Part shown: piece by piece, positions 3,766-40,141 of the stretch | Numbering within the stretch: the first letter of the stretch is position 1 | How the letters are laid out: each line of letters starts with the position of its first letter | NCBI GenBank assembly: GCA_025558095.1 | Contig: JAIVFI010000026.1 | Span: 372,001-436,000, forward strand | Length of the DNA stretch: 64,000 bases | Reading direction: 5' to 3' | Origin: Hyaloraphidium curvatum SAG 235-1 | Lineage: Eukaryota > Fungi > Monoblepharomycota | Notes under the pieces: generated by a model | Database searches by the model: none | Seen by the model: the letters and a program-made list of their open reading frames with translations, nothing else | What the model was told of the DNA's origin: nothing | Program-made: the position numbers and the translations under genes

Positions 3766-5247
3766 ATGACGGAAGCGATTCGTGGAGCAGACATCGATGT
3801 GGACGAGGTCCAGGAGTTTCCGATTAGGCTGGTAAAGCGCCCGTCGCAGCGTGACCGCAAGAACCAGAAGAGCATTCGCTCGAAAGCGAGAGCTTGGGAA
3901 AGGGTCGATGAATTGATTGCAGCCGGAAAGAAGCGCTTTCCCGGTTTTGCGTCCCTGGACGGGCGCTTCCTGGAGTGGTTGAAAGCAAATCCGAAGGCGA
4001 ACGGTTCTGTCCACAGTCCCGTAACGCTTCTGCAGTATCACACCGTATCCGGAATCATTGGTCGTTTGATCGTAGGAAAGAAGCGCGGCATCGCTTACGC
4101 AGAGACCTTCCTTCAACTCCCAGTGGACGATCCTTCCGTGCAAAACTTCCGGGTTTGGTTGAACTACTACACACCCGAACGCATCTGGAGGCTTGTCCAG
4201 AAACACACATCCAATTTCGCTTCCCAGAGCGCATTCGCAGTGGCTCTCCTGAAGATGTTTACCTTTCATCGTGGATCCTCCGACCACGCAGACGTGATGT
4301 TCTTCACTGACAAAATCAAGGAGCTAGGGAAGATGACAGCTGTTGCAAAGCGATTGCAGCTGCCGCAGTTGGGCGCGGGGGACCTTCAAGTCGAATTTCG
4401 CACAATTCGAGACAAGGTACGGAGCTACGCGGAAAACATCCTCACGCGTTTTGAAGCAGCACCACCTGACGTGATTCAGAGAGGACTATCCGAAATACAG
4501 GCAGCTGCCATCACATCGCTTTACGTCCTGCACCCGCCTTCGCGTGCAGACTACGCATACCTTCGATTCACTCCCTCGAAAACCCACAACTACTTTGATG
4601 GTGGGGAGAACAGTCTTGTGTTTGTTAATTTCAAAACGGCCGCTACGTACGGTGTTGTTCGCGTCAAGATTGAGAATCCGATCGTGAGTCGACTTTTGCA
4701 CTTGCTCGCTGACAAGATCCGATCGCAGAATGGGGATCGCTACGTGTTCATGTCGCGACCCGGTAAGGCTTTTTCGACTGAGGCCGGGTTTGGACAACAC
4801 GTCGGCTACTGTTTCCGGCGTGTAACCGGCACGGCGCTTCGTCCTACCGCACTCCGGCGTCTCTATTTGAGCGATCACGCGAACGGCACCGTTGATCAGA
4901 ACGGGGAACACCGAGTGCCTTCCATGGAGGAAAACACGTCGCTTGCACGCAACATGATGCACAGCGTGGGCATGCAGGCATCCTACCGTCGGATGCCAAC
5001 GCTAGATCACATTCGGTCTACGATTCCTACCAACGACCCTGCGGTGCCCCGTGACGTTGCTTCGGCTGCAATCGAAGCTGTTGGTCGGATGCAGGCCGTG
5101 CAAGCTGACGGGTCAAGGGAGCAGCGCCTGGCGTGGGAAAAGGCCAAGCGCGACCTGGTGCGAAAAGCGGTGGAGATCGACGAGGCGCGTGAAGCAGCCG
5201 CTAAACGGCATCGTGAGAGACTCCACCAGAGGCGGTTGTCACAGTAG
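3766..5247 (+). CDS. Tyrosine recombinase/integrase (PLV/virophage/NCLDV-type)
   Basis: HPPSRADY (R), NFKTAATYG (K), RPTALRRLYLS (second R; H of HxLR absent), LARNMMHS...QASY (H, Y nucleophile). Intronless. Confidence 0.85.
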   Translation: MTEAIRGADIDVDEVQEFPIRLVKRPSQRDRKNQKSIRSKARAWERVDELIAAGKKRFPGFASLDGRFLEWLKANPKANGSVHSPVTLLQYHTVSGIIGRLIVGKKRGIAYAETFLQLPVDDPSVQNFRVWLNYYTPERIWRLVQKHTSNFASQSAFAVALLKMFTFHRGSSDHADVMFFTDKIKELGKMTAVAKRLQLPQLGAGDLQVEFRTIRDKVRSYAENILTRFEAAPPDVIQRGLSEIQAAAITSLYVLHPPSRADYAYLRFTPSKTHNYFDGGENSLVFVNFKTAATYGVVRVKIENPIVSRLLHLLADKIRSQNGDRYVFMSRPGKAFSTEAGFGQHVGYCFRRVTGTALRPTALRRLYLSDHANGTVDQNGEHRVPSMEENTSLARNMMHSVGMQASYRRMPTLDHIRSTIPTNDPAVPRDVASAAIEAVGRMQAVQADGSREQRLAWEKAKRDLVRKAVEIDEAREAAAKRHRERLHQRRLSQ

Positions 5248-7199: not shown

Positions 7200-7931
7200 T
7201 CAACCCCACCAAAACTTCCAGAGGCATCCTCGCTTGCGGCGGACGACATGCATTGACTCGTCGGTCGGTTCCGAATCCAGCGCCTCTAGCCGTTGTAGCT
7301 GCCGATCGATGTCTGCAAGCATTCGCGTCGTCTCCCTGTCCAAATCCTCGGCCAGTCGCATCTTGCGTCTTGCCGCATCCTCCAGCACGCGTGCGCGTTC
7401 TATGCGGAGCTCTTCGACTTCGGCGGCGGGGTTTGCGAACTCCGATGGGGGCTCAATGTTGAAGCACGATCGGAACGACGCCAGCACCGCCTCGTCGATT
7501 GGAGTCGGGGAGATCAAGCGGGTTGCCGTTCTGCGATTGTCGTCGACCACGCGTCGGTAGATGCAGATGGGCTGGAATTCGCGGAACAGTGCTGCCATGC
7601 GTCTGGCGAGATCTTCCGTGTCGTTGGGTGCTGCGCCGAGGAACTGTGCCAGCTTGGTCCGTTTCACCCCCTCCCGCGGGTACGGCGCGGCGGAAGACAG
7701 CAGCCCATGGAGCTTTGCCCAGCCCAACAAGACTCTCTCTGCCTCCAGAGCCTGTGCGCGATCGACAAAGGCTGCTCTGACAATGTGCTTCATCTGACGT
7801 TGAGCGTAATCCCGGGTCGGATCGGTGGAATACCCCACCTTGGCGAGGTTTGGGTTCGTTGCGTGCACTGCCAAATACACGTAGCAGAGGCTGTCGATCC
7901 GGAAACAGGCGCCCGCGGGGATGTCGGACAT
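7200..7931 (-). CDS. GIY-YIG/T5orf172-like protein with C-terminal coiled coil
   Basis: YVYLAVHATNPNLAKVGYSTDP...ALEAERVLL pattern. Confidence 0.65.
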   Translation of the reverse strand: MSDIPAGACFRIDSLCYVYLAVHATNPNLAKVGYSTDPTRDYAQRQMKHIVRAAFVDRAQALEAERVLLGWAKLHGLLSSAAPYPREGVKRTKLAQFLGAAPNDTEDLARRMAALFREFQPICIYRRVVDDNRRTATRLISPTPIDEAVLASFRSCFNIEPPSEFANPAAEVEELRIERARVLEDAARRKMRLAEDLDRETTRMLADIDRQLQRLEALDSEPTDESMHVVRRKRGCLWKFWWG

Positions 7932-8051
7932 GATTCGGCCGTTTTTCGCTGTTTGGGCTTAAGGTGCTCAGGTGGCTTCCCGGGTCCTCGAAACGTCTTC
8001 CCGCCGCTGCCAAAAAACTCCGGAAAAGGGGAGACCCAGTAGAACGACGGC

Positions 8052-8834
8052 ATGCTGCAGCTTCCGGAGCTTGACACGGCAGGGATCGCGGCGATTGCCA
8101 AAGAGATCCCGTACGGCGTGTGGTTCATCTGCGGCAAACGCGGATCGGGCAAATCGGTCCTCGCCAAGTGGATCATGAGCGCAGTTGCCGAGCGCTTCGG
8201 GCTCTTTGTTGCCGTTTCGTCCACGGAGGGGTTCAATCGCCACTATTCGAGCTTTCTGCCCAAGGCCTTCTGCCATCACGCATACAGCCCCGAAGCGCTT
8301 GCACGGATCGTCGATGCCCAGAGCCGCCGCGTGAAAGAGTTGGGCGTCTCCAAGGAAACCAGCCTTCTTCTAGTGCTTGACGACGTGTTGCATGACGGTC
8401 AAGAGCTCTTCAAAGACAAGAATCTGAAGCACATCTTCATGAACGGCCGACACATTGGAATCTGTCTTCTCCTGCTTGTGCAATACATTGTCGCCGTGCC
8501 GTTGGCTCTCCGCAGCAACGTCGACATCACAATCAGCTTCGCAGACGACACATACGACGTAAGACAGCGTCTTTGGAAACTGGCCGGTGGAAGTCTGAAG
8601 TACCCTCAATTCTGCGAGTTCTTCAACCGCGCTACGGAAGGTAGAAGGGCGCTCGTCATTGTCGCGCGTGCAACAAAACAGGGAAAGATGTTTTGGGTGC
8701 TTGCCAAAGACGCCCCAAGTCTGCGCCTTGGCAGTGACTTGATGTGGTCCTTTCAGCGCCGCTGGGGCATTGACCGTCTGCCCAGGGCGGAGCAGGCTCT
8801 GTACCGCTCCAGATTCGTCGCAGTGAGCAAGTAG
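8052..8834 (+). CDS. A32-like virion DNA packaging ATPase (FtsK-HerA family)
   Basis: Walker A GKRGSGKS, Walker B LLLVLDD, arginine finger MNGRH, and LLVQY; 260 aa. Confidence 0.9.
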   Translation: MLQLPELDTAGIAAIAKEIPYGVWFICGKRGSGKSVLAKWIMSAVAERFGLFVAVSSTEGFNRHYSSFLPKAFCHHAYSPEALARIVDAQSRRVKELGVSKETSLLLVLDDVLHDGQELFKDKNLKHIFMNGRHIGICLLLLVQYIVAVPLALRSNVDITISFADDTYDVRQRLWKLAGGSLKYPQFCEFFNRATEGRRALVIVARATKQGKMFWVLAKDAPSLRLGSDLMWSFQRRWGIDRLPRAEQALYRSRFVAVSK

Positions 8835-8945
8835 AGGATCCACGTCGCCGGTTCACCATCCTGCTCATTCGGTCCGTCCACGCTCCGCAGGCACCGATGA
8901 CGGGCGCTTCATTCGGCCTTGCCTTTTTTCCACGGCGGTCGCAGC

Positions 8946-9836
8946 ATGACGACGTCCCTTGCAGAGCAGGCCGCGCTTTCCGCGGCTTTGTTTAGCCGGC
9001 GCGACGAGGAAATCGTCGCGCTGGAGCTCTCTGCGATCCGCACGGCGGTCTCCTTCATGTCGCGATTCGGCCACTCGCACACCCTGCACCAGATCGCGAC
9101 ATTCACGCCCGGTCATTCGACGTACAGCATCCACAGCGTGACTCAAAAGGTCCTTGACGCTCTCAACGCCGAGGGATTCGCCGCCGTGCCCCTACCATCC
9201 CACAGGCCCGGCGCCATCGTCGTCGCCTGGGGCGACGCCGGCGATCGTCTGTCAGCGGCTCAAATGGCCATGCGGCGCGCGGAAAGGCGAGCGGAACGGC
9301 ATGCAAAGGCACGGGCAGACGCAGGCAAGGCGCTGAGGGCCGAGTCGCCGCAGCTGGCCGAGTCGCGGCGAGAGACGGCAAATGGGAAGCGACGGGAGGG
9401 GTCGCGAAGCTCAGGTCGGAAGCGAAAGCGGGACCGGGCGGACTGCGGGAGAAGCGACAGCGAGGCGACAGCCGTTGCGTCGACGGTCGGCAGCAGGAGC
9501 AGCTTGGCGTCGGCGGCTACAGCGGCCACAGTAGCAGCAGGGGCGGTAGCTCCGGCGGTGCCGACGGTGGCGCCGGCAGCGGTCGGTGTCCGCCGGCGTC
9601 TCTACGTGCCCGGAGAGAGCGTTGCTGAGAGCGCCAGCAGCCGCGCTCCGCAGCGGACCGCCGCCCCCGCCCGGGATCCCGTCGCGACGCTGATTACGCG
9701 GCCGTCAGCCGTCGTTCCGCGGCAGCGGGAGGAGCCGAGGATCCTTCTTCCGACCCCGACGCCCCAGGAGCTGGCGTTGTTTTCCTTTTGCGACCATGCA
9801 CAGGTCACACTCCCGCCCGGAATTCCGACCACCTAG
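8946..9836 (+). CDS. Protein resembling a conserved NCLDV family of unknown function, with low-complexity tail
   Basis: HQIATFTPGHSTYSIHSVTQKVLDALNAEGFAAV...AIVVAW fits the remembered pattern VP.F..G.P.Y...L...GF.V...L.ISW (possibly DUF5759, from memory). Confidence 0.55.
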   Translation: MTTSLAEQAALSAALFSRRDEEIVALELSAIRTAVSFMSRFGHSHTLHQIATFTPGHSTYSIHSVTQKVLDALNAEGFAAVPLPSHRPGAIVVAWGDAGDRLSAAQMAMRRAERRAERHAKARADAGKALRAESPQLAESRRETANGKRREGSRSSGRKRKRDRADCGRSDSEATAVASTVGSRSSLASAATAATVAAGAVAPAVPTVAPAAVGVRRRLYVPGESVAESASSRAPQRTAAPARDPVATLITRPSAVVPRQREEPRILLPTPTPQELALFSFCDHAQVTLPPGIPTT

Positions 9837-9841
9837 TGCGA

Positions 9842-10429
9842 ATGACCGCCGCTTGTGCCGCCTCCAAGGCCAGTTCCGACGCACTGGGCATGTTTGGAGG
9901 CGTGGACAACGCCGACGAGCTCACGGACGACGTTCTGCGGCACCTGCTTGTCGCGTGGCGCGCAAGCGGGCAGGGCGGTCACGATGTCTACTGGGATCTC
10001 GCCATCGGAGCGCTGTGTCTGGCCGACGGACGGGGAGACGCGCATGCTGCGGCGTTTTGGACGCAGATCGGCGCCATGGCCGCTCCCGGCGGCATTGGGA
10101 AGGGGGAGACGGCGGAGGCGGCGTTGGACCGCGGAGTGGGGAGCGTACAACTGCTCCAAGCGGTCGCTGCCGGGGACTTGGTGCGGCTCCGGCAGTGGCT
10201 CTCTGCCGGCTGGAAGCCGAGCTTTGTGGGATGTGCGGCCGGGTCGATCCGTGGTCGGGACGCGATGGACGTCGTGGAGCTCCTGCGCGCGCTTCGCACG
10301 CACGGGGTGCGGTTGCCGCCCGCTGACAAGTTGGACTGGGACAGCCTCCAAGCTGGAGACAAGGGCGAGGCGATTTTGGTGGCCAGCATGTATCGGGAAG
10401 ATGCGATTGCACTACAGGGTCTGCTGTGA
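9842..10429 (+). CDS. Hypothetical helical protein, paralog of 26559-27242
   Basis: FW...PGGIGKGETAEAALDRGVGSVQL...GWKPSFVG versus FW...PGGIRDRESPQRAMERGIGSTQL...GFRPGFAG. Confidence 0.65.
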   Translation: MTAACAASKASSDALGMFGGVDNADELTDDVLRHLLVAWRASGQGGHDVYWDLAIGALCLADGRGDAHAAAFWTQIGAMAAPGGIGKGETAEAALDRGVGSVQLLQAVAAGDLVRLRQWLSAGWKPSFVGCAAGSIRGRDAMDVVELLRALRTHGVRLPPADKLDWDSLQAGDKGEAILVASMYREDAIALQGLL

Positions 10430-10437
10430 ACGTGAGG

Positions 10438-11301
10438 CTAGAAGCCGCCGAACGCGTCCTTGAACCTGAGCCTCGCAGCGGCGTTGTCCGGCAGGGCGAT
10501 GAAGCGGGCCCAGACGCGCGCAGGGGTGTCTTTCATGGAGAGGCGCACGGCTGCGTTGCGCTGGAAGGCGGCCGTAGCCGAGGTGTAGCGGAAGTCTTCG
10601 CCAGAGACGATCGCAGAGATGGTGAGCTTGAGGTAGCGCGCTTCCGGCGGTAGGTTGGAACGGTGCTCGAACGCCGAATTGAGGAGCTCCAGGAAGGCTT
10701 GATCCAGGTCCTCGTACACGCCGAGTGCAGCGCCGACCGGGGGAGATTGCTTGACATCCGTTGCGACGAGCACGTAGGCGATGGTGGGCTTGACGGAGGC
10801 TTCCGTCGGCGCCTCCGATCCGGCCGTGTCGTCCTCCTCGTCAAACACGACGCTGGCCTCGTCGTCGGCAAACACGCGGTCCTGAATGCTGACCCTGGGT
10901 GTCAGCGACTGGATCTTTTGGGTCGGGACGATGCGGGGGAACGGGCTGTTGCGGCCGCGCGTCGAAGACTTGGGCGGGGTTGCGCGCGGAGTCGACGGCT
11001 GAGGAGCTTCCGGCGCTTCTTCCTCCTCAACAGAGCCGTCCTCCGATTCGTCCTCCGCATCGTCGGCCGTCGTGACTGTTTGGGAGAGCGGCGACGGGCC
11101 TTTGACGGGAGCCCTGCGTTTGATCGAAACGCGCACCTGGTCGGAGGCGGAGGTAGAGGCCGACGAGGCTGCCGAAGCAGTGGAAGCAGTGGAAGCCGTG
11201 GTTGCGGACGACATCGAAGAGACCACGCTGGAGGTGTCGTCGTCGTCGTCCTCAACCTGCTTGCGCTTGTTGTTCACACGGGGGTTGGTGCGGGGCGGCA
11301 T
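10438..11301 (-). CDS. Hypothetical protein, acidic/Ser-rich N-terminus and globular C-terminus
   Basis: ATG start, NLS-like KRK, upstream T-tract, ordered C-terminal ~100 aa. Confidence 0.6.
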   Translation of the reverse strand: MPPRTNPRVNNKRKQVEDDDDDTSSVVSSMSSATTASTASTASAASSASTSASDQVRVSIKRRAPVKGPSPLSQTVTTADDAEDESEDGSVEEEEAPEAPQPSTPRATPPKSSTRGRNSPFPRIVPTQKIQSLTPRVSIQDRVFADDEASVVFDEEDDTAGSEAPTEASVKPTIAYVLVATDVKQSPPVGAALGVYEDLDQAFLELLNSAFEHRSNLPPEARYLKLTISAIVSGEDFRYTSATAAFQRNAAVRLSMKDTPARVWARFIALPDNAAARLRFKDAFGGF

Positions 11302-11331
11302 GTCGGTCTGTCTGGATCAACTTGGATCAGG

Positions 11332-11769
11332 TTAGCGCCAGTCTGGAGAAAAAAAGCACCGGCCATTCGTCGATCTTGCGTCATTGCCCTCTGGTGAACG
11401 GAGCCCACAATGGCGGCGCCAACTGGCGGGGCGGGAGCTTGACGGAGGCACGTCCAAGCCCAGGGGCAGCGGTGGCGTTGTGAAGAGCGGGAGGACATCT
11501 CTTGCGCGGGCGTCGCCGTTGGAGGCGTCCGTTTGGCAGCCGCAGCGAGTCCGACACGGGCAATCGCCGCAGCAGCCTCGTCCTTCGCGACCTCCCGCAG
11601 CAGGACGCTGCTCCGCGTCGTCGGAGTTTTGGATGATGTAAACTTGCGAGTCAGGACGGGAGCGCAGAAACTGCTGCTCACGTTGGAAGCGCAGAGACGT
11701 CAGCAGCATCAGAGCGACCATGGTCAGCAAACCCAGGACAAGAGCCCTCTGTTGATCCATGTCGATCAT
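11332..11769 (-). CDS. Small membrane-anchored protein (possibly frameshifted)
   Basis: N-terminal TM ALVLGLLTMVALMLLTSL; plausible coding signal shifts between frames downstream. Confidence 0.4.
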   Translation of the reverse strand: MIDMDQQRALVLGLLTMVALMLLTSLRFQREQQFLRSRPDSQVYIIQNSDDAEQRPAAGGREGRGCCGDCPCRTRCGCQTDASNGDARARDVLPLFTTPPLPLGLDVPPSSSRPASWRRHCGLRSPEGNDARSTNGRCFFSPDWR

Positions 11770-11835
11770 GCCGGCGATCCTCAGAAAAAGCACTCTTCAA
11801 GCCGACCCGGGCCGCTCCATGAGTCGGCTTTTGGC

Positions 11836-13442
11836 TCACGCCCGCGGGCGCTTCGGCGCCGTCTTTGCTGCTGCGGCTTTGGTCGCTTTGGCCGCTTTTC
11901 TCTGTTTCGCGGGTTGCGGCGACGCACTGCGTTTCCGCTTGGCCCCTGCAAGGGTGATCGCTTCGGCAGTCCGGCCGCGCTTCACCCGTCCCGCAGTTGC
12001 CTCCGTCGGAGACCCGCCGCGCTTCCTCTTGCCGAGGGCCTCTTGCACGGCCTCCCGGGAGCGCTTCGAACGACGTGCGGCGGGGCCGGGGCTGGCGGAG
12101 CGCCGGCGCTTGCCAGTGACCTCTTCGTTTCGGGGGCCGTGCGGGGGCGCTTCGCCTTGGCCTCGGCGGGAGGCGGTGTGCGGGATCGTCCGCGCTTCGG
12201 GATGGTGCGGCGGGGCAGGGCGGTGCCGGAATCTTCGACCATGTCCATCGCGTCGTCGTTGGAGGGGTCGTCGGGCCATGCTCCCGGCGATTCGATGGGG
12301 GAGGTGCGCTTCGTCCGGCGTGGGAGTGCGCTGCCTTCGTCCTCAATGAATTCGACAAAGGAAGCTTCGTCGTCGGAGTCCGTGGCGGCATCGGGCGCGG
12401 GCGCAGCGGCGGTGGCAGGCGTCGGATGGGCGGCAGCGGGGCCGGTGGGCGTCGGGGAGTCCTGTGCCTCAGCTGCTTCGGCCTCGTCAGCCGCGTCCTG
12501 CGCGCCGGGCTCAGCTGGGCCGTCGGCGGCGTCCCAGCCCGCGGGCAGATCCCAATGATCCTCTGCTTCGGCCGGAGCTTCCCAGAACCGTGCCTCTTCG
12601 TCTCCGCCGGCGACGCTACCGGTGCGGGCGTCGGGCTCTTCGCGCTCTTCGCGGTTTGCGAGAGCCGCAGAGAGGCGGGCGACTTCTTGGCGGCATTCTG
12701 CGAGCGCGGCGCTGAGCTTGGTGTTCTGCGCGTCGGACCGGGAGCGGTGGGTCTCGCACAGTGCCAAGCGATGCCTCAGCTCCTGCATGTCCCGGGTCCC
12801 CTCTGCCATCACATCGCGCAATTCTCCAATCGCCTCTTCCTTCTCGGCAACAAGAGCCTCGCAACGTCCCAGCCTATGGCGGAGGGCATCCCGGTCCGCG
12901 GCGGAGGCCTGGGCGTGCCTCAGCGCGTCGCGGAGAGCGGCTGCATCCGCTTGGTGCGCTACTTTCTCGGCGATCATCGTATTGAGCTCGTCCTCCAGCT
13001 CTCCCATGGCCCGTTGGGCATCGGCCAGCTCTCTCTTGCAAGCGGAGGCGTCGCCGGCTTCGATTTGAAGCGCACGGATCGTCTGCTGGTATTCCGACAG
13101 CCGGTGACGCAGTGCTTTCGCCGACGTGTGCGACGTGTGTGGCATCGATGCGATCTGCTTCTGCAGCTTGCGGATCTGCTGCTGGAGTGCGCGGACGGAG
13201 GCTTTCGTAGGCTCGGCAGGTGGGGCGGCGCCGGGCGCGGCGGCGGCTGGCTCCTGGCGCGGCGGGTCTTGTGCTGCCACCGGGGTTGCCGGCGGCGGTG
13301 GTGCACGCGGGGTCCGCGGGACCGTGCGGTTTTCGCAGTGGACATGTTGGTAGCAGTACCTTGAGCCGTCTTGGGCGTTGCGGCTGCAACGGTTGCGATC
13401 GCCCGATGATTTGATACAGGCGCATTGGACTGGTTCGGACAT
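11836..13442 (-). CDS. Cys/His-motif coiled-coil protein with basic tail (probable frameshift near 12130)
   Basis: N-terminal CACIKSSGDRNRCSRNAQDGSRYCYQH (a motif common in large DNA virus proteins), then a long coiled coil. A K/R-rich tail (KRRRSASP...KAAKATKAAAAK) continues in another frame (ORF 11836-12279). Confidence 0.6.
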
Positions 13443-14025
13443 CGTCGTTGGCCGTGTGGATCGGGAATAATTCCATCTGCGTGGTCGCGGTGGGGCGGGG
13501 AAAGGGGCGGTGTGACACTTTTAGGTCCGTGACACATGGAACTGGGTCGCCACGCGGCGACCAGCTAGCTAGTGCAATGAGCCTCACGACCACGGCACGC
13601 CGCCGACTCCGTCTCCGTCTCCAGCCGACCGGTGACGGCCGCAACGGCGCTTCGTGCGTCTCCGACGTTTGTCCGCCGCCTCGCACGGGACCGGGGTCCA
13701 CAGAGCATCCGTCTTCGTCTTTGCGTGCGTGCCAGGTAGCGGCGATCGGGTGTGGGTGGCGGCCATCGGCGCGGGTGGTGCAGATCGGTGCTGGTGGCGG
13801 CGATCTGCGCGGTTGAGCGGCTTTGGCGGCGTCTGCGTCTGCGGGAGGCTCGTCGTGCCTTTGCGCCATGCGTCGCCTCTGCACTTCCGTCAGACCACGC
13901 GGCCACGGGAAGCGCAGCCCGTGCCATTGACCGCACTGGCTGCTCCGGACAGCTTCGTACACCCCTCTGGATCACGGTGGCGTTCATTTCGGGCTTTTTT
14001 GTGGCAACCGGGTGCTCATCGGGCG

Positions 14026-14223
14026 ATTCGGGGCATTCGGGGTATTCGGGGCATTTTTTAGGGCCCCGGGCCTAGGCCGAAGGGCAGATTCAAGGATGGT
14101 ATATACGGAAAAATCTTTTAATTTGTATCCATTATAAAAAAATACCCCTGATCTCCGCGAACCCCCAAAGCCACCTGGCGCCGACCCCCCAAAAAATGCC
14201 CCGAATGCCCCGAATACCCCGAT
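14026..14223. promoter_or_regulatory. Origin-like block 1: inverted 9-bp iteron arrays flanking an AT-rich core
   Basis: (ATTCGGGGY)x3+ATTTTTT at 14026-14059, inverted copy at 14191-14223, AT-rich core ~14096-14145. Lies downstream of primase-helicase 1. Confidence 0.6.
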
Positions 14224-14546
14224 GGCCAGAGGAGCGGCCCAAAACCGCCGCCCGAAGCACAGCAAGTAGCCACGAAGCCCCCAGCATGAAAGCGGGCTGA
14301 AAAATGCGCCCCGGACGGGTACGATCTGGGCGCCCGGACGTCCGAATTTTGGCGGGTCAACGGCCCACCCCACAAAATGCCCCGACGCGCACCCCCGGCG
14401 TGCCCTGCTCCAAAGCAGCTGTGCAATCAATGAAAAAGACACCAATGCACCTTTCTGTGAGTTTGAGGCGGGTTCGGAAGCGTCATGCGGCCGAAAGGCG
14501 CCCCTTCGTCAGCTGGTCGCTGGATGGTGAGTCATCAATCCGTTTC

Positions 14547-17500
14547 TCACTGGGCTGCAATGATGCGCCTACAGAGCCCCGTGTACTCGGCAGTTTTGTT
14601 CGCATCTTTCCTTTCTGTGCGCTCGACACGGCCTCCATCGACTTCAAACGCCTTGCGCGCAATCAGCTTTGTCATGTGCCTACCAAAAGCGTTCATCTTC
14701 ATCCGCTCCTCAATCGGATAGAAGTGTTCTTCGTAGTCGGCAAAGAGCTCCCTCGCTGAGACGGATTCCCGTGCAATCCGAGCGGCATCGATGGAAACTT
14801 CGTAGTTCGTAAGTATCCACCGCAGCACAGCATCGTTATCGTTCAAGTGTTCATCCGTAGTCTTCTTTATACTGGGAGGCGGTGTGAGGCCAGTCCCGTC
14901 TCCCGGTCGCTCCAGGGACGACTGGATGAAAGCATCCTTCCACTTACGGTATCCTTCAATGAGCCATTTCATCATCGCCATGCGCATCTCGGGTTTCTTT
15001 AATTCTCGCCCGAGTCCAGAGTCCTTCATCTTCCAGTATTCCTCACCAGCAGCTGCGGCCGGGTCGTCGACGAACTTTGTGCGGTACGGCACATTCCGTG
15101 CCCTACGAGTGATCGCGTCGCTTGTTGCATCAAACTTTGGAATATCGTTGATGAAAACCCACATCTTTGCGATTAGCGAAAACTGAACGGTGTTGCCGTT
15201 GAGAAAACGCCCAGAGGTTCGATTGCCTGATGTGTAGACGTTGAAGCGCTCCACATTCAACTTGCGCACCGGTCCAGATTCACTGATGATAACACAGCGC
15301 TTTCCGCGGAGAGCCATCAATTCTGGAGTCGCCCGCTCGACATCCCCCACATGGTCACAGAGGATGCCGATCTTGGTTGAACCGGCGTAATCTCCCAGTG
15401 CGTATTCCATGGCCTTGCCTTTGACGCCCTTGCCGTTGGATGCGCTTCCGAGGCAAAAGTGCATCACCTGTTCGAAGCATTCCCCGGTGATACTGTATCC
15501 CGATGCTCGGTGGGCGTATTCGTACTCTTCTTCGACGGGGTAGATGTCCTTCATGATTTGCACAATGCGCTCGTAGTCCACGTTTGGAACTTCATCCAAA
15601 GGAACAAAGTCGTATCCGGTGGTGTAGCTCAGCATCCATTCGCGACGTCCACCTGGGTAGAAGAGCCCCGTTTCCAGATCGTACGTCCCGTTGTTGAACT
15701 GAACTGCGTATGGCTTCGTATCAAGCAATTCGTCGAACTGGCTTGCATCGACGCCCATCTCTGCAGCCAGTTGGTTCACAACATGCCCCTGAAACGTGTC
15801 CGACTCAAGGTCCATCAGCACTTTCCGTATCTTCGCGACCTTTGCTGCCAGTAGGTCTTTTGCCTCATCTGTCGCACCATTCTCACTAGCGTCGCGAAGC
15901 AGGCGTTCATAGACGCGAAGAGCAAGAACAAAAGGCGAATAAGCCTCCTCCTGTCGAATGTATCTGAGCACAGCATGGCTCCCGTCCTTCTTCTTGGTAG
16001 GATCGTAGCGCCAGCGTGACCCCGACCAGTGCCCCCATGCACCGGAGGCTTCCGAATAAATGAAGGGACATCCTTCTTTCGATTCGAGAGGGTTGTTGAT
16101 GGCCAAGAACTTGGAGATCGATGAGTGTCCGCCGCTCAATGCTTTCAGAAGAGACCTGTTCCATTCGGGCCCCCGATCGGGATCAACCGTGACGCCGTCT
16201 GCTTCAAATTCGTGCCAAGCCCCCCCTTCATCGACCGCGCCGTAATTGTGGTTGTGCACGACGGTCGTGTTTTGGTTGATGACCATGAGCAAAGAGCAGT
16301 GCAAAGCAGCCCGATCCCGTGGTATCGGCATGGGCTCTTTGAACAAGTTGCGATTGCACTGTGGGCAAGACAACTGGACCCCCAATCCAGTCACCGAACA
16401 GTTGCGCGGCGTCTTTTTGCGGCAGAATCCGCACTTCTTTGTTCCCTGTACGCGCGCAACGGTCCCTTCAAAACCGGTCATGGTGCTGTGGTTGCGCAGA
16501 AACACCTCCTTTGGCTCGCAGTTGGCGATCGACGAGGTGAGTTCGATGGCCTCCTGGTGCGCAGAAGACGAAAATTCGATGGGCTCCATATTCCAATTCG
16601 CGCCCCAAATTGCGGCGGCGTCAGCGGCCTTCATTTTCGCCTTCTTGCTCTCTCCGGAGTCCCATGTAACGACCACGTCTTTTCCCTTCGCAATTTCGAC
16701 GAAAAAGCCCTCCCCAACAACGCGGTAGGTCAAAACACCATCAAGCATCGTTTTCGAGACCGTCTTCCGTGCAGACAACACGTGTGGTCTCTTGTCGAAC
16801 TTGCATAGAGCACCCACTGCCGACTGAAGGACCGCCACCTGCTCGGCATCTTCCATTCTGAACATGGGAACCGAAACCGACTCTGACGATACGCTGGCGC
16901 AGTCTTGCTCCGCAAGGCCACTCGCTTCAACCATCACGCAATCACCGTCAGTGTCGTTCGCACCTGCAACCACTACAGCAGGTTGCGAGGCCTCGTCCGA
17001 TTCCATGGCAGGTTCAGCCTCCATGTCATTGGTGGTCTCCACATCGCCGGCAGCGACTTCTATCGCCACCCTCGACGCCCGCACGGCCGCGGACGGACTG
17101 TACGCGATCGGATCGGCCGCTTCTTCTTGGTTCCGCACCTTGCGTTTCAGGCCGAGAAAGAGCACCCGAACGCGAAGGCATGTCTCAGTCTGTCCCAGGA
17201 TCTCCTTTCCTTTCTTCAATGTCATGTTCTTTTCGCCGATGGTGACTCGCAGTCCATCGCTCAACGGGACCAAGATGTATGGGAAGTCGCCTGTGCAGAA
17301 GCGGATTGCAGTGTAGTCGACGCCCCCGACCCTCCGTGTGCCAAACAATGCCCGTTCGACCGCATGTGCAACAATCCGCTGCTGCTCCGTGCTCATGCTC
17401 TGATTCTCCGGAAAGATCCGCGTCAAGAGAGCTGTCGGGACGGTGAGTTCGAGCACCTTTCCCGCCTCCTTGCACTCTGTCGCCTCGCAGATATAGACAG

Positions 17501-19478
17501 CACTGCCGCGCTCGTAAGTTTTGATCAGGCGGCGCGCAGTTTCTTTGTCGACATCGTCGCCGTGGAGCCAGCCAGATGCCTCTCCCTTGTGCGCACATTG
17601 GCGGTCTCTCAGCCTCACCCACACGCAACGGCTCCCGACCTCCCCTGTGGTACCGCAATCCTTCATTTGAAGCGGGAACCAAGCCAGAGGATTGTCCTCC
17701 ATCTCGCCCGCCCCACGCCCGCAACGGTAGTAGTCAAGGAGATCCTCGCACGCGCGCGCCTGATCCTCCGTGAGCTTCCCATACGCGCCGGATGCGTTCC
17801 ACTTCGGAATGTATCCAATTTCGACGCCCCTGCTGTGCATCCGCTCAGCGCGTTCCGCGCCGTAGTCCGATTCCAGCTCCTCCTGCGTCGGACGAATCAT
17901 CAACGCCATGATCCGGTCCACCGTCGCTTCCAGTGCCTCACCGGTCTCCAGCGACATGGGAAGGTAAAACGTCCCACTGCGCTTCCTCGACAGCGGCAGC
18001 CGCTTGTTCGCGAAATCGACGCGGAACACGCCCGTGTCGATGGAAGCAAAGCGTCCCATCTCGTCGTCGGCGAGCAACTTCTTGGCACGCTCCGCAATCT
18101 CGTGCATCGCCCTCAGACTCGCAATTCCATTCGGCGCGACGATGTGCAACTTCCCGGGCTCCACGGCGTTGAACTCCGCGGCAAGCCCGGCGGTGAACCC
18201 GTTCGCAATCTCGCTGCCCTCCGCTTCGCCCAGAACGGCAACGCAGAAATCTCTGCACGCCTGTTTGAGCACTCGAACCACGGCACTGGCGAGCTTCAAG
18301 CGCCCCGGCGCATCCGCAAAAGCACTGTAATCGCCCCCGTCGTCGCGCCTGTCCACCTCTGCAAAGACGCGCGCGTACTTGAGCCCGCGCGTCAGTTCGG
18401 AGAAGCACAGGACCTTGGAGTCCGGGTGGTTGCGATGTTCGTCGATCATAGCCTGTGCAAACGTCCGCAGGGCCGCGCGGTCGTTCGGCACCCTGATCTT
18501 GCCGGGGATGCCGGCACCGGGGCCTGCGAGAAGCAGAGTGTGCGTGCTCTGAGCGCTGTCCTTGACGGCATGCTGCCAGACGAACTGGGCGAGCGCGCTT
18601 CGCTGCCTCCCAAACGGGACAAGCACGTCGCGGCTGCCGCTGCCGCTCCCGGCGCCGGCACCACCGCCCGCGGCGGTCGCGCGCTGTCCCTTGCCGGATT
18701 TGGAGACCTTCTTTTGCACGGCGGGGTGTCGCCCGAGGATGACGTCCACGAGTGCATCGGGCATGCGCGCTGGAAGGCGGTCAAAGAGCGACGCACCGGG
18801 ATCGAACCGGTAGTGGGCAACGGTGCCGTCCGGGAGACGGTAGCTCGTCGGCGGCGCGTAGATGATGCCCCCTGAGCCGCGCGTGTCGATGTCTAGCACC
18901 TTGCCGTCGATGCTGAATGCTTTTGCCGTAAGCGTCTCTCCTGCAAGCCTGTCGTCGTTTGCAAAATAAAGATGGCGCCCTTTTCGCGTCGTCACCGTCA
19001 CGGTGGCGATGCTCTCGACGCTGGGGATGCCGACGGTGTGGAGGAGCAAGTCCAGATCAGCCAGATTGTCTCCGTCGATGACGAAAATCCCACCCGGCTC
19101 CCCCGTGACGAGGCATAGCCCGTTGTGGTGTTGTTTGACCTCGCAAACCGTGCGATACCGCTGCTCATCCGACGGGTTGTCGCATTTCTTGACGATTTGG
19201 CCCTTCGCGTCGGTGTAAGACGTCATGTGGAGTGGAACGACCCGGATCCCCATGGCCCGAAACGCGGATGCCGCCGAAGCCACTGTGAGCTCTCCGGATG
19301 GGCGTGGTACAAGCACCAGGGAGGAGGCGCATGTCGTGTCCGTTTCGTCCCGCTGCGGAGTGGTTTCGATTTCCTCCTCGGCAGCCACTGACTGGGCCTT
19401 CCCCGGTGGCGAAGGTGTGAGCGACGCCGCGAAGGACGGGGCATCCGATTCGTCGTCGCTAGCGTTTGTCCAATCCAT
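14547..19478 (-). CDS. Prim-Pol + AEP primase + D5-like SF3 helicase fusion
   Basis: Prim-Pol IFVIDGD/GRHLYF/IDTRG..GIIYAPPT; AEP RVFAEVD/KLHIV/IDTGVF; CxxC pairs; D5 FNNGTYDL; Walker A GSASNGKG, Walker B VIISE, motif C VFIND, AITRR. Confidence 0.9.
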   Translation of the reverse strand: MDWTNASDDESDAPSFAASLTPSPPGKAQSVAAEEEIETTPQRDETDTTCASSLVLVPRPSGELTVASAASAFRAMGIRVVPLHMTSYTDAKGQIVKKCDNPSDEQRYRTVCEVKQHHNGLCLVTGEPGGIFVIDGDNLADLDLLLHTVGIPSVESIATVTVTTRKGRHLYFANDDRLAGETLTAKAFSIDGKVLDIDTRGSGGIIYAPPTSYRLPDGTVAHYRFDPGASLFDRLPARMPDALVDVILGRHPAVQKKVSKSGKGQRATAAGGGAGAGSGSGSRDVLVPFGRQRSALAQFVWQHAVKDSAQSTHTLLLAGPGAGIPGKIRVPNDRAALRTFAQAMIDEHRNHPDSKVLCFSELTRGLKYARVFAEVDRRDDGGDYSAFADAPGRLKLASAVVRVLKQACRDFCVAVLGEAEGSEIANGFTAGLAAEFNAVEPGKLHIVAPNGIASLRAMHEIAERAKKLLADDEMGRFASIDTGVFRVDFANKRLPLSRKRSGTFYLPMSLETGEALEATVDRIMALMIRPTQEELESDYGAERAERMHSRGVEIGYIPKWNASGAYGKLTEDQARACEDLLDYYRCGRGAGEMEDNPLAWFPLQMKDCGTTGEVGSRCVWVRLRDRQCAHKGEASGWLHGDDVDKETARRLIKTYERGSAVYICEATECKEAGKVLELTVPTALLTRIFPENQSMSTEQQRIVAHAVERALFGTRRVGGVDYTAIRFCTGDFPYILVPLSDGLRVTIGEKNMTLKKGKEILGQTETCLRVRVLFLGLKRKVRNQEEAADPIAYSPSAAVRASRVAIEVAAGDVETTNDMEAEPAMESDEASQPAVVVAGANDTDGDCVMVEASGLAEQDCASVSSESVSVPMFRMEDAEQVAVLQSAVGALCKFDKRPHVLSARKTVSKTMLDGVLTYRVVGEGFFVEIAKGKDVVVTWDSGESKKAKMKAADAAAIWGANWNMEPIEFSSSAHQEAIELTSSIANCEPKEVFLRNHSTMTGFEGTVARVQGTKKCGFCRKKTPRNCSVTGLGVQLSCPQCNRNLFKEPMPIPRDRAALHCSLLMVINQNTTVVHNHNYGAVDEGGAWHEFEADGVTVDPDRGPEWNRSLLKALSGGHSSISKFLAINNPLESKEGCPFIYSEASGAWGHWSGSRWRYDPTKKKDGSHAVLRYIRQEEAYSPFVLALRVYERLLRDASENGATDEAKDLLAAKVAKIRKVLMDLESDTFQGHVVNQLAAEMGVDASQFDELLDTKPYAVQFNNGTYDLETGLFYPGGRREWMLSYTTGYDFVPLDEVPNVDYERIVQIMKDIYPVEEEYEYAHRASGYSITGECFEQVMHFCLGSASNGKGVKGKAMEYALGDYAGSTKIGILCDHVGDVERATPELMALRGKRCVIISESGPVRKLNVERFNVYTSGNRTSGRFLNGNTVQFSLIAKMWVFINDIPKFDATSDAITRRARNVPYRTKFVDDPAAAAGEEYWKMKDSGLGRELKKPEMRMAMMKWLIEGYRKWKDAFIQSSLERPGDGTGLTPPPSIKKTTDEHLNDNDAVLRWILTNYEVSIDAARIARESVSARELFADYEEHFYPIEERMKMNAFGRHMTKLIARKAFEVDGGRVERTERKDANKTAEYTGLCRRIIAAQ

Positions 19479-19578
19479 TTTGGATCCTATGGTGAGTGTG
19501 CAAAAACGGGACCGATTTCGCGTGTGTGGAACAGTGGAGGTTTAAAATTCCGTTCACTGGCCGCTGGACCAAACGTGG

Positions 19579-19989
19579 GTGTCCGGCACTGTTTATTTTC
19601 TTTGGTCCCATCAGAAGCAACTGTTCCCGGCATACAAAAAGCAGATCGCGAACATGCTGAGCACTCAACTCCCCCGTCGCGCCGCCGATTTCAAATCCGC
19701 AAAGGGCCGAAGCGCCGCGGCGCTTTTCGACGAAATCGTGAAGCGACTGGACATCAGCCCGGACGCAGCGACGTTCATCCACCCGGAAGAGGTGCAAACG
19801 CAGCTGCGTTGCCTCATTCCATGGGATGCGGACCGGTACATTAGGAGCCAGAAGCTCATGATGCAAGTCATGTGGGCCATAGATCGTCGATACGGCGACA
19901 CTCACACAGTAACTACCGTGTTCATGCGAGGAGCGACCGGCCCTGCTGTCGTCACTGCGCCCATCAGCCCTCCGCCGGAGGCTGCCTGA
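19579..19989 (+). CDS. Hypothetical protein
   Basis: 136-aa ORF divergent from primase-helicase 1; start uncertain. Confidence 0.45.
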   Translation: MSGTVYFLWSHQKQLFPAYKKQIANMLSTQLPRRAADFKSAKGRSAAALFDEIVKRLDISPDAATFIHPEEVQTQLRCLIPWDADRYIRSQKLMMQVMWAIDRRYGDTHTVTTVFMRGATGPAVVTAPISPPPEAA

Positions 19990-20170
19990 GACTCTCAATG
20001 GAGTTTGGAACGCTGTTGTAACCTGCTGTCAGGAATCGACGCTTTTTTTGCAACAATGCATGCCTGTCGCCGTCTGTGCCGCCCATTATGCTCTCTGCGG
20101 TCGTCACGGTAATCAGGTGCGGAAGGAGTGGACGTGATCGATGTCGTGAGACTCGTGAGCGCTTCTGCGA

Positions 20171-20760
20171 TCAAAACCTGCGCACACCCGTCCTTCCACC
20201 GGCCAGCGCAACAACCAACCCATCCGGCATCCTGGTCGGTACCCTATCAAATGGGCTTGCCCCGTCGCTCCACGTCCACGCCACCTCCTCCCCGCCCGGC
20301 CCGATGTACCCCGCAGGAGGCACCACCACCCAACCGCCAGCATTCCTCCACTGCACCTCCACCACTTCGCCATCCACCTTGTACCTTCTCGCCGAAGCCT
20401 GCATCCGCGCCAAGCGCTGATCGTACCGAAACACCACCACACGACCATGCGGCCCGATCGCAGACACCGAATCCAAACCCGGCAACACCCCCATCCCGCA
20501 CTTGCCCAGCAACGCCTCCAGTCCGTCCTTGTCGTCGCACTCCAACGCCACGACGCCTCCAACGGCGCCCGTCGCAAGTCCCACGGCGTTGTGTTGCGGC
20601 AGCACCCGGTGCTCCACGTTCTTGTGCCAATTCAACGGGAGAGACACACGCTCCGATCCCGTGCGCGCATTCCAGCCGATGCACACGGGGAAGGCGACGT
20701 AGCCCAGCTCCTTGTACGCGCGAACGGCGTCGGCCACCGTCAATTCCGCTTCCGGCTTGG
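20171..20760 (-). pseudogene. Stand-alone, catalytically degenerate Prim-Pol domain
   Basis: HNAVGLATGAVGGVVALECD...GASPFDRVPTRMPDGLV aligns with the N-terminal Prim-Pol of 14547-19478 (HNGLCLVTGEPGGIFVIDGD...GASLFDRLPARMPDALV). Catalytic residues are replaced and there is no nearby in-frame ATG. Confidence 0.7.
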
Positions 20761-21056
20761 TACCGAGTGCAAAGCGCCTCGGCACCGGGGCAACACCTTG
20801 ACGGGCGTCTGCTGGCCATCGACGACAGTGTCCGACACGGGCCGAGATCCTTCGGGGGATGCCATCAACGATTTGAAGGCTCTGCGAGGATTCAAAAATC
20901 CGTCCGTGCGCGCCGCCGAGGCCGAAGCGAGCGCGTGATTGCAACCACCGTCCCACTTGCCCCTCTGTTTCCGCTTTCGCTGGTGACAATGCCTCGTCGC
21001 GGTCAGGGGCCCCATCATTCTCGAGCGGCGTTGGATCAGCCTGGATTGACTGAAGG

Positions 21057-21728
21057 ATGGGTGCTGCGGTGTCCACCCAAATTGCCGACACGACCAGTGA
21101 AATCTTAATCGATGTCATGATCTCCAACAGCGCCGAGTGCAGTGCCTTGTCGGAACAGCGCGGGAGCATCAATCTCACGGCAAAGGGTCCAATTGTGCTC
21201 CGGGATGGTGCCCGAATCAACCAAAATTCGAACGTCAGTCTTTCCTGTATTTTGGAAAGCACGAACGACACCAAACTCCGCTCAGATCTTCGTTCGCAAC
21301 TTTCGCAGGCGGTCAAGCAGGAGCTAGAGGGCCTGAATCTCCTGCAGACCGCGGTCAACGCCAACATCACGCGGCAGGTAGCGAAAGTGGCCCAAACGAT
21401 CGACATCCAGGACATCAAACGGCAGATCGGTTCGATCATTCAGCAGGGCGATATCACTTTGCGTTCGACCGATGACCGCATTGAACTCAAAGAAGCCGTG
21501 ATCGACCAGGACGCCACGGTACTGGTGAAGGCAGTATCCCAGACGGTCAACCGAAACGAAGCCGTGGCGGAGCTCCAAAACATGGTGACGCAGGAAAACA
21601 CACAAAAACTGGTCGGAATCATGACCGCGGGCGGTCTCGTCGTCATCGTTGTCGTTGTCGCGATCGCGTACTTTTGGCTCAACCACAGGAGCGACAGCAA
21701 AGGCCGAAACTCGGACGACGACGACTGA
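21057..21728 (+). CDS. Myristoylated virion membrane protein (poxvirus L1-like/NCLDV lipid membrane protein)
   Basis: MGAAVS myristoylation start, Q/N/S/T-rich ectodomain with Cys, single C-terminal TM helix (GGLVVIVVVVAIAYFWL). Confidence 0.8.
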   Translation: MGAAVSTQIADTTSEILIDVMISNSAECSALSEQRGSINLTAKGPIVLRDGARINQNSNVSLSCILESTNDTKLRSDLRSQLSQAVKQELEGLNLLQTAVNANITRQVAKVAQTIDIQDIKRQIGSIIQQGDITLRSTDDRIELKEAVIDQDATVLVKAVSQTVNRNEAVAELQNMVTQENTQKLVGIMTAGGLVVIVVVVAIAYFWLNHRSDSKGRNSDDDD

Positions 21729-21911: not shown

Positions 21912-23828
21912 TCACGTGCACCGCAACCATTCGCGCAGTGCCGCCACCTCCCCCGTCCTCAAGCCCCCGTCTCCAGCCGCTTCCCCCAACCCCACACTCA
22001 TGAGAACGCCCGACACCAGCACCTTGGCCCTCGCTAGTACCGTATCCCCACCGTCTGTGGGCAGCAGCGACGCGCACGCGGCAAGCTGCCGCAGCACCGT
22101 CGCGTGCACATCCGGCGGCCCGCCGCGGACGAGCACCCGCTGGTGCAAAGATACGTGCAAGAGGGAGATGCAGAGCAGCGCGGGGCCATGCAGCGGGCCG
22201 GGGAGACGGCGGGTAGCAATCGATCGCGCACTGAGGGCGGCAATCGCTTCGAGGATCTGCGTGCGGGTCTGCCGTCAGCACGCCGGTGCACAACGCACGC
22301 CCGTCATGCAGGAGATACAAACCTCGCCCAGCATCATTCCGCCGCCCTCCGCGGACGCAACCTCGTCTGCCAGCCCCTCGATGAACCCGGCGTGCACCCT
22401 CCCTCGCATAAACACCTCCCCGCACGCTGTTTCGAGCTCCATCCAAGCGCCGGCCAGAACCGCACGGGCGCATTCCTCCGCCTCATTGGCGAGCAGAGCG
22501 TGGAGCGACCGCACGGAGACGAGCAGCCCGCGGCGGCGCCGTTCAACGTCGCAGGTGGAGGACGCGCTGCTGTACATCTCCGCACCTGAGGTGGATTCGT
22601 TGCAGTCGTCGAGATCGGGGTAGGGTAAGAAGGAGGCGACAGCGGCGGCGGCGGCGTGCAGAGCGTCGAGGAGGAGGCGGGTGCGCGCGAGAAGCAGGAA
22701 GGCGACGTCCGGGGTGGAGAGCTGTGCGGGGAGGGACGGGCGCGGAGGAGCAACGCCGATCCAGGCGATGAGGGGAGCAACGTGAGAGGGTCTATGATCC
22801 GCGAACCTGGGGTCGAACGCGTCCTGAAAGGAGAGGCGCCACGTGCCGTCCGGAGGCATGGTGTGGAGGTGCCCCACCAGAAAATCGAGTCCGGTAAGGT
22901 CGCCGCGCTTCATGGACAGGAAGTCGCGGGCCGCAGCCTCGGCTTCTATGCGGGCGAGGGCAAAGAGGCACCCCTGGAATTCGTGGTACGCCGTCCACGC
23001 GTCCCGCAGCATTGCAACCCCATGGGGCGCCAGCGGCGCTGCCCGCACCTCGTCGACGCTCCGGACCCGCAGAGCCGAACACATGACGGTTTCCCACGAC
23101 GGCGCGGAGCCGCTGGCCATGGCCACTCCGGCGGCGTAGGTGCACACACCTTCCAACTTCTCGGCAAGGTCGAACAGCCCCCTCCGCTCGGCCCACCCGT
23201 GCATGATCAGGGGCGCCGCAAGGAATTCGCTGGCGTCCAACGGAGTTCTTTCCGCGGGGTCTGCCAACAGCCACGCTTCGATCTCACCCGCGGCCTCTGC
23301 AAAGAGCCGAATTTCGAGTCTCTCGGGGTCCAGCACGTGCGCCTGCAGGGCCGGTCCCGGGTCGCCCCGGGCCATGGACTGCGCCAGGCTGCCCGCGGCG
23401 TCCAGGAGGAGACACGAGAGCGCGGCCTGCCGCGGGGGGAAGTCGCGGCAGACGCGGCGAGCGTGGAGCAGGCGCAGGCGCGGGTGTGCGCGGAAGAAGT
23501 GGCGCACGAGGCCGACGACGGCGGCGATGGGGATCGAAACATGCACGTACACCCCAGGTGAGGGGGAGAACGGCTCCTCGGGGCCGGTGTCCGGGGGTGC
23601 GTCGCCGGGCGAGTGGTTGAAACGCGGTGCGGCCAGAGTCTCGGGCGTCGTTGGCCACGGGGCCAGGACGATCATCGGCTCGGGTCCCAAAGCGTCCTCA
23701 TCCTCGAACAGCCCGATGTCCGCGTTGCCGACACCGTCGGCCGCAGCTACTGAGAACAGCAGCGTCCCGTCCCACGCGGCCCACGTCGGCGCCGAAGCCT
23801 CCGCGCCCAAGCTAGCCCCGTCGAGCAT
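21912..23828 (-). CDS. Hypothetical helical protein, two exons (intron 22269-22322)
   Basis: The ORF stop lies inside a 54-nt GTTTGT...CTGAC..CAG intron; splicing joins it in frame to the 21912-22268 reading frame. Confidence 0.55.
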
Positions 23829-24396
23829 CTGGAAATCGCCGCGAAACGCCGTTCCGATGCGCCTGGCCGTCCCAGTCTGTTCTGTTTGTCGGGCCGTCCG
23901 GTCTGACCCACTCCCTCGTTGCCGGGGCGGGCCGCGCTGGGTTCGTTTCGGTCCGATGTAGCGGGCGAAGGTTCGAGGGCGCGCACAGTGTACACGGTTG
24001 GCTGCTCTGATACTTCCCGCGACGTTTGCCCGGTTGGGCACTCGCGGAATCCGTTGGAAGGTCAGTTCTGACTCGACTAGGCGGCACGATGGGCCAAACA
24101 CCATGCGACTCGAAATCAGGTGCGGGCTTGCCACCTCCTCCGTTGAGCAGTCCTTGGTGCGGAAGGTGGTTTCGTCCAACAGGGCAATTGATTGTGCCGC
24201 AGCATGCAACGGCCTGTGCTTGGAACAGCATTGGGCCATGAGGCCATGGAAAGCCCCCTTCGCCTTGCGCGGCTTGCTACTCGGCTGCGGATGACTCCCT
24301 TGGGATGACTCCCCCCGAGCCCCTCGGAAGACTCCCCCGACGATCCATCCGAGTTCAGAAGCGATCCGATCCGGTGTCAGAGTGTCTCCTCCGGGG

Positions 24397-34830: not shown

Positions 34831-34851
34831 CTTCGCCCGATGTTCGGCTAA

Positions 34852-40012: not shown

Positions 40013-40141
40013 CAGCACAATCCACGCCGGGGGCGGGGTCTTAAAGCGAGGAGGCCAAACGCAACCGTTTTCTGCATGAGTGAGCCCAGTGCAATGGCGG
40101 ATGTGTGGGTCGCATTTTCGCACACTATCGCCAGCACTGTC

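Follow-up and report, generated by a model that had tools for sequence, protein, structure and literature searches.

Hyaloraphidium curvatum SAG 235-1 is a fungus of the Monoblepharomycota. Here we describe an element of about 45.7 kb in its genome, occupying about 660-46400 of a 64-kb stretch (contig JAIVFI010000026.1 of GenBank assembly GCA_025558095.1, positions 372,001 to 436,000 of the forward strand), which we call the window and to which all coordinates refer. Both ends of the element are degenerate terminal inverted repeats, and between them lie a tyrosine recombinase, primase-helicases, virion-type genes, a likely Mutator-like transposase and host-like genes. In the reading that we prefer, to which we give an even chance of being right, it is a mosaic, capsid-less, virus-derived mobile element that moves and duplicates as DNA in the fungal genome, and its packaging and membrane genes hitchhike unused. 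Since the window and not the whole genome was searched, all statements of absence are limited to these 64 kb. An earlier note on this DNA, made from the sequence alone, had pointed to virion-morphogenesis genes without a recognisable capsid or polymerase; the ends of the element, its recombinase, transposase and replication genes and the sister copy had escaped it.

The left terminal inverted repeat (662..744), which carries GCGCATAG sub-repeats, aligns in reverse complement, with 71-80% identity, to the right one (46284..46391), which is followed by five 40-bp tandem repeats at 46406-46604. The pairing gave a local score of 63, where none of 392 background windows exceeded 24; though degenerate, these are terminal inverted repeats as looked for in a Mutator-type element. 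The ratio of observed to expected CpG climbs from about 0.45 to about 1.1 at the left end, stands at 1.10-1.18 inside the element versus 0.45-0.50 in the flanks, and drops to 0.1-0.5 past about 46650. The insertion site is debris of long interspersed nuclear elements (LINE) within the fungal genome. LINE-like sequence flanks the element on the left (1-406) and on the right (47.3-49.4 kb), and from 49.6 kb onward come host-type genes (RapGAP, WD40, RING). Among the CpG-depleted LINE fragments just right of the element (47348-49363), 486 bp are duplicated in direct and 200 bp in inverted orientation, with near-identical copies. Inside the element, at 35235-35285, the terminal-repeat motif occurs as a further pair.

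Adjoining the right end, the frame at 42418..46218 (+) is likely the transposase of a Mutator-like element (MULE), of the DDE type and 1249 aa long after removal of an in-frame 51-nt intron (junction 43048-43100). Its match to PF10551 (15 bits) lies under the cut-off of 27.6, and the motifs D, D, CxxH and E occur in the order that we take to be the MULE pattern. The frame is open once spliced and stops 66 bp inside the right terminal repeat.

Near the left end, a tyrosine recombinase of Polinton-like-virus type is encoded at 3766..5247 (+). It scored 50 bits against a profile of 12 IMG/VR proteins, carried on contigs of 6-18 kb and retrieved with a motif derived from the query, so that the score is partly by construction; the alignment reaches well past that motif. 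PF00589 was matched by three of the 11 members of the alignment, and the R, K, R, H and Y motif positions, presumably catalytic, are conserved. Among the contigs that carry the IMG/VR proteins, one 16-kb record is complete and has direct repeats at its termini. Searches of the PDB and of phage sequences gave no matches, and a single-sequence fold was uninformative (pLDDT 38), for which reason the identification rests on sequence profiles.

Part of the element exists in more than one copy. The packaging ATPase at 8052..8834 has a sister in H. curvatum (KAI9006337.1) that differs at 4 of 260 residues (98% identity), and the gene at 10438..11301 has a sister, KAI9006338.1; the two consecutive accessions lie on one other contig with no annotated gene between them. 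DNA pieces were compared with the window over 3.7-18.7 kb and 28-45 kb, using two DNA runs of one sample; among the pieces listed, those at least 4 letters off the window made up 10 of 15 in the first interval versus 0 of 12 in the second. We conclude that sister copies exist of the left block (3.7-18.7 kb); the right half appears to be present once. Between the recombinase and the sister contig, 24 listed substitutions fall in 23 codons, of which 20 are silent and 3 replacement (20/23 versus 25% expected, p 7e-10, among the substitutions listed, drawn from 40 of 417 rows). From this codon pattern we argue that the recombinase is probably under purifying selection.

These copies bear on the explanation of the locus as an eroding endogenous giant-virus relic, in which deletion took the capsid and polymerase, a Mutator element of independent origin and host genes landed nearby, and a segmental duplication or the other haplotype accounts for the sister. 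We take this explanation seriously and judge it unlikely. The silent-site bias of the recombinase speaks against it, as do the indels between copies, which among those listed are mostly in-frame or intergenic, the pairing of the terminal repeats over the full 45.7 kb, and a right half without a second haplotype among the listed pieces. Erosion would account for the broken kinase and ligase fragments described below, the acquired introns, the degenerate repeats and the target-site duplication that was not found. Capsid-less relics are also known from fungi, a 1.5-Mb region of Rhizophagus being described, in the available portion of the report, as without major capsid protein, A32 and D5 (PMC10640383). 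The "reduced relic" offered by the earlier note fits in part, but frames that are intact, the transcripts and a recombinase under purifying selection speak against a dead fossil.

The virion-type genes include an A32-like packaging ATPase (8052..8834, +; PF04665), which is intact and transcribed. Its match to Pfam Pox_A32 (43.6 bits, cut-off 22.8) bears out the earlier naming of an A32-like ATPase, and it is about 30-36% identical to sequences from giant-virus contigs and bins. The phylogeny that the earlier note had proposed was made as a quick tree of 37 rows, without pox-, asfar-, irido- or pandoravirus references; the ATPase fell outside the giant-virus sets, its sole partner being a very long branch, and its virus donor was not placed. 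Its neighbor (8946..9836, +), previously called NCLDV-like (after the nucleocytoplasmic large DNA viruses), is recognised as a divergent member of the giant-virus family DUF5759 with a low-complexity tail. Residues 29-101 gave a weak match (13 bits, E 0.0036 over all stop-free window frames) to our DUF5759 profile of five sequences, with an hhalign probability of 41%. The Pfam search misses DUF5759 in this gene. It was the sole stop-free frame of the window below E 7 with the profile, DUF5759 was the family predicted for it beforehand, and the family is present in three of the five giant-virus bins searched.

The third gene of this set (21057..21728, +) encodes a myristoylated inner-membrane anchor of the L1/F9/VP88 family, with an MG-x-x-x-S start and a C-terminal hydrophobic helix. 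A profile of 64 rows from its 80 relatives matches iridovirus VP88 (8HIF) with E 1.7e-28, three of the 64 family members match L1R_F9L, and Atlas assigns the protein to L1R_F9L clusters (0.93), so that the myristoylated L1-like protein of the earlier note is upheld. The structural model (pLDDT 73) found 8HIF as its best VIA-align match (Z 8.5, rmsd 3.2, 111 aligned), a score on a par with that of an unrelated chain (Z 8.2). Foldseek returned nothing below E 0.001 for the model, with poxvirus L1, M1R and F9 chains in the top ranks, and a word-based search with the protein gave no matches. The gene was missed by annotation and is not in the protein collection; the protein and its five closest relatives are without the second cysteine pair found in other family members. 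One giant-virus-bin locus (5843-8676 in its own numbering) was found to carry an L1-like gene, followed there by a gene that we take to be probably penton-like; the window is without a counterpart of that neighbor. Farther right, a fibre-repeat-like peptide (36647..36838, +) gave 13 PHROG matches (E 1e-7 to 1e-2), one of them a tail fibre at E 1e-3; these agree with the fibre-like label given earlier, against which stands a length of just 63 aa.

The virion genes (VP88/L1, DUF5759, A32) support an origin of this gene set in Nucleocytoviricota, as the earlier note had suggested from the L1-like gene. The suggestion does not extend to the recombinase, which is of the small Polinton-like-virus type, and because of this combination the element is regarded as a mosaic.

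Such genes would also suit a satellite of a fungal giant virus, which would integrate by the recombinase, be excised on infection, replicate from the palindrome described below and be packaged by its ATPase and anchor into a helper capsid, in the manner of phage satellites. The gene set presumably parallels that of phage-inducible islands, and the ATPase is intact in two copies and transcribed. VP88, according to the portion of the study available, is anchored in the inner membrane and myristoylated, touches the major capsid protein and joins capsid to membrane as assembly begins (PMC10090177). Zoosporic fungi are infected by giant viruses, and capsid genes occur in two Monoblepharidomycota genomes, as stated in the available part of PMC13533422. 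Against a satellite, no free relatives of the ATPase, the second primase or the recombinase were found in viral contigs, nor of the ATPase or the L1 subfamily in metagenome contigs, by scans that are insensitive to distant relatives; the first primase frame is moreover broken by splicing. We consider a satellite improbable, and hold in equally low regard its more specific form, a capsid-less integrating satellite that would hijack Mycodnaviridae capsids through its own ATPase and anchor and was captured here by a giant Mutator transposon.

A capsid and a polymerase were sought in several ways. No Pfam family for capsid, PolB, RNA polymerase or VLTF3 was matched among 49 open reading frames of the window or in 232 stop-free frames of at least 80 aa. 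The 232 frames, five of which had any Pfam match, exclude those of 60-79 aa and any that overlap mainly with seven assigned genes. A profile built from 25 capsid proteins of giant-virus loci scored at best -2.0 bits over all six frames of the 64 kb, read with X at stops, and a penton-like control was likewise negative. By a crude test, the composition minima of the 25 control capsids were reached by one of 43 stop-free frames of at least 250 aa, that of the recombinase. The general Pfam scan of the window frames gave no match to HUH endonuclease, VLTF2/3, Mriya48 or capsid, all features of Mriyaviricetes, and neither Pfam nor the giant-virus-derived profiles matched a Polinton-like-virus major or minor capsid protein in the window. 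The region 3.7-21.7 kb is tiled by assigned genes, with a single gap of more than 300 bp (13442-14547) that contains the palindrome. The candidates for a jelly roll put forward earlier are short: a 115-aa domain at 10438, 111-147 aa at about 19579, 120 aa at 21912 and 155 aa at 35419.

By Pfam, capsid profile and composition, the statement that no reading frame resembles a capsid, PolB or RNA polymerase was confirmed, and the same three lines gave no support to a highly divergent capsid within the window; a hidden capsid there is unlikely. That the element holds a complete small virus with a capsid diverged past recognition strikes us as very improbable. The capsid profiles used were derived from giant viruses and not specific to Polinton-like viruses, which leaves some room for it; the crude composition test singled out only the recombinase frame, and the candidates named earlier measure 111-155 aa. 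The capsid and polymerase could instead lie elsewhere in the same genome and act in trans, as in a split or dispersed provirus. Capsid genes in the two Monoblepharidomycota genomes cited above would be in keeping with this, and the window covers 64 kb only. No capsid occurs in those 64 kb, no annotated gene separates the sister ATPase from the sister of 10438, and the element is filled with host cargo and a likely transposase; we rate this explanation as improbable, marginally below the satellite.

The replication kit, which is without PolB, consists of two primase-SF3-helicases and a loose Prim-Pol gene. The first primase-helicase (14547..19478, -; 1643 aa) joins Prim-Pol, primase-like and D5_N/SF3 helicase parts, with PF09250 and PF08706 above cut-off and an intact Walker A motif. 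The stand-alone Prim-Pol domain (20171..20773, -; PF09250 27.4 bits) is a paralog of its N-terminus (E 2e-27). The second primase-helicase (28989..33712, +; PF08706, PF19263) combines motifs like those of archaeo-eukaryotic primases (AEP) with D5_N/SF3 helicase and has in-frame 5' introns. The two primase-helicases are 35% identical over 746 aa, both D5-type genes hold primase-like motifs, and a D5-like primase-helicase is thereby present, of which the helicase part alone aligns to giant-virus D5. The earlier "no polymerase" accordingly stands for PolB and RNA polymerase and falls short for the two Prim-Pol domains above the Pfam cut-off and the primase-like motifs of both D5-type genes. Adjoining the end of the first primase is a palindrome (13992..14249), recognised by repeat and DNA fold analysis, with inverted arms carrying 9-bp GGGCATTCG repeats and an AT-rich core (73% AT). 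Its DNA fold has a z of -4.0, with 0 of 200 shuffles equally stable, and the primase RNA contig stops at 14167. The palindrome may serve as an origin or may mark transcript ends.

The host transcribes and splices the element, and splicing breaks several viral-type frames. One junction-bearing run was taken as RNA, by guess, because of its splice-type junctions; 15 of 17 junctions have spliceosomal GT/GC-AG ends, and none were seen in the DNA runs. The contigs of this run give neither expression levels nor the presence of unspliced forms. One of them (8130-9070) spans the ATPase and the start of the DUF5759 gene with 0 differences and is gap-free there; an annotated model that places an intron inside the ATPase probably represents a mis-annotation of this locus. 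The junctions of the first primase (73 and 59 nt) lead to stops after aa 135 and 524, and introns also break the frames at 7200 (52 nt) and 38076 (70 nt). The 54- and 51-nt introns of the second primase keep the frame and lengthen it to 1538 aa, as the transposase intron keeps its own. A spliced contig of 8.9 kb (37014-46183) crosses several genes into the transposase, a contig being no proof of a single transcript. Antisense spliced contigs over the recombinase (4504-4706) derive from a sister copy. Splicing of newly acquired genes may damp them.

Under the preferred reading of a virus-derived mobile element, the left block (recombinase, ATPase, DUF5759, palindrome, primase-helicase and perhaps L1) would have come from an integrated virus that lost capsid and polymerase after integration, before the copies diverged. 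The recombinase would excise and re-insert the left block, which its own Prim-Pol and primase-helicase might copy from the palindrome. Here the block would have come to lie inside the 45.7-kb unit, bounded by Mutator-like transposon repeats and holding gathered host genes, and host splicing at cryptic sites would truncate several viral frames and so damp them. Several observations weigh against this reading. Mutator-like transposons are marked by a target-site duplication of 9-11 bp, and none was found, no word of at least 8 bp being shared by 560-700 and 46330-46900; the terminal repeats are merely 71-80% alike. No att-like repeat of more than 12 bp was found near the recombinase, which is covered only by antisense-spliced contigs. 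In the protein collection the first primase matches only itself, with no full-length sister, and no sister copy of the complete 45.7-kb unit was seen among the listed pieces. Both the ATPase and the L1-like gene are intact, with transcripts of the ATPase, and hitchhiking alone would account for this only if the capsid had been lost recently.

The remaining genes are in part host-like cargo, as judged from domain matches: an F-box-like gene, a Zn2Cys6 factor, a broken kinase, a ligase fragment and an inhibitor-like protein. The F-box-like gene (2136..3419, -) matched PF00646 with 19.8 bits, just below the cut-off. The host-like Zn2Cys6 transcription-factor locus (21912..25554, -; PF00172 above cut-off) has likely exons at 24397-25554, 22275-23858 and 21912-22274, pieces that we infer to belong to a single gene. 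A frameshifted protein-kinase fragment (25945..26510, +; PF00069 58 bits) carries on in another frame. A DNA-ligase OB fragment (39503-40150, -; PF14743 above cut-off) lies between two paralogous genes (38076-39290 and about 40085-41356, together 38076..41356, +; mutual E 3e-118), and a membrane-anchored protease-inhibitor-like protein (36930..37574, -) matched PF00280 and PF11720 at E 0.01-0.02, under the cut-off.

In the left block, four small paralogous and probably helical genes (5239-5763 -, 5693-6220 +, 6193-6630 - and 6678-7160 -; mutual phmmer E 1e-6 to 1e-15) were tried as loose recombinase N-domains and rejected, as they do not match the recombinase N-terminus. They are followed by a T5orf172/GIY-YIG-like protein with a coiled-coil tail (7200..7931, -; PF10544 E 0.1, under cut-off) and, beyond the DUF5759 gene, by a gene (9842..10429, +) that is a paralog of 26559-27242 (phmmer E 3e-20). 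The gene at 10438..11301 (-), with a sister as given above, has no Pfam match and comprises about 170 aa of low complexity and a domain of 115 aa, a length that does not suffice for a double jelly roll. A Cys/His-finger and coiled-coil protein (11982..13442, -) gave coiled-coil Pfam matches under the cut-off and weak zinc-finger matches. On the right, a Cys/His-containing gene (35419..35886, +) has a paralog elsewhere, with 6 silent changes and 1 replacement. Loose-ended contigs likewise point to paralogs elsewhere in the genome for this gene (35468-35591), the 38076 family (38855-38957) and the transposase (43102-43134, 43792). Internal tandem and dispersed duplications (231, 158, 39 and 25 bp) occur at 33760-35285, 36148-36266 and 37884-40084, and the duplications within 33760-40084 include paralogous genes with common upstream motifs.

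The phage satellites P4 and PICI (phage-inducible chromosomal islands) have an integrase, a primase-helicase beside an origin and a packaging factor, and are without a capsid. The present element has a similar gene kit in a eukaryotic host, helper dependence here being an analogy only. Fungal giant endogenous elements (Mycodnaviridae, PMC13533422; Rhizophagus, PMC10640383; both as described in the portions available) likewise have Nucleocytoviricota-type genes integrated amid host genes in an early-diverging fungus. The 1.5-Mb Rhizophagus element is, like ours, without a capsid gene. The present element is far smaller than these and differs from them in bringing a recombinase, a likely transposase and terminal repeats of its own, and in having a sister copy. 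In keeping A32, D5 and L1 without PolB or RNA polymerase, it is nearly the reverse of the Rhizophagus element, going by the accessible part of that account (PMC10640383). With NCLDV-like Polinton-like viruses and Mriyaviruses (VC134, Zoravirus, Zephyrvirus; 10.64898/2026.06.19.733378, in the sections available) it has in common a tyrosine recombinase, a primase-SF3 helicase replacing PolB, a giant-virus-like A32 and a size range of 20-45 kb. Two marks of Polinton-like viruses, the tyrosine recombinase and the primase-SF3 helicase module, are present. Major and minor capsid genes, by which those viruses are defined, were not found here, and unlike those viruses the present element has a likely Mutator transposase and host cargo; the string "myristo" is absent from the main text of that work.

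Teratorn, which joins piggyBac to a herpesvirus (PMC6431247, PMC5601938), is likewise a giant, inverted-repeat-bounded element combining a DDE transposase with virus genes. By the available text of PMC6431247, it retains polymerase and virion genes, whereas here the likely transposase is Mutator-like, the genes are of giant-virus type and no capsid was found. Pack-MULEs share the Mutator-type repeats around captured genes; those reported in that text are at most 7 kb and hold gene fragments, in contrast to 45.7 kb with whole viral genes. By analogy, the element would work like a giant cargo transposon made of virus parts, in the manner of Teratorn, with a kit resembling that of NCLDV-like Polinton-like viruses. 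The capsid gene expected of Nucleocytoviricota was not found in the window, and we place the element in none of the groups compared. No published description of it was found in the literature, and the host is not mentioned in the accessible parts of a survey of endogenous DNA viruses (10.1101/2025.04.19.649669).

If the unit moves as a whole, it would represent a route from giant-virus genes to a fungal transposon far larger than the Pack-MULEs treated in the available text of PMC6431247. Elements of this kind would escape scans based on capsid or polymerase markers. As the host is culturable, both the satellite idea, that is, capsid theft, and the taming of viral genes by cryptic splicing would be directly testable.

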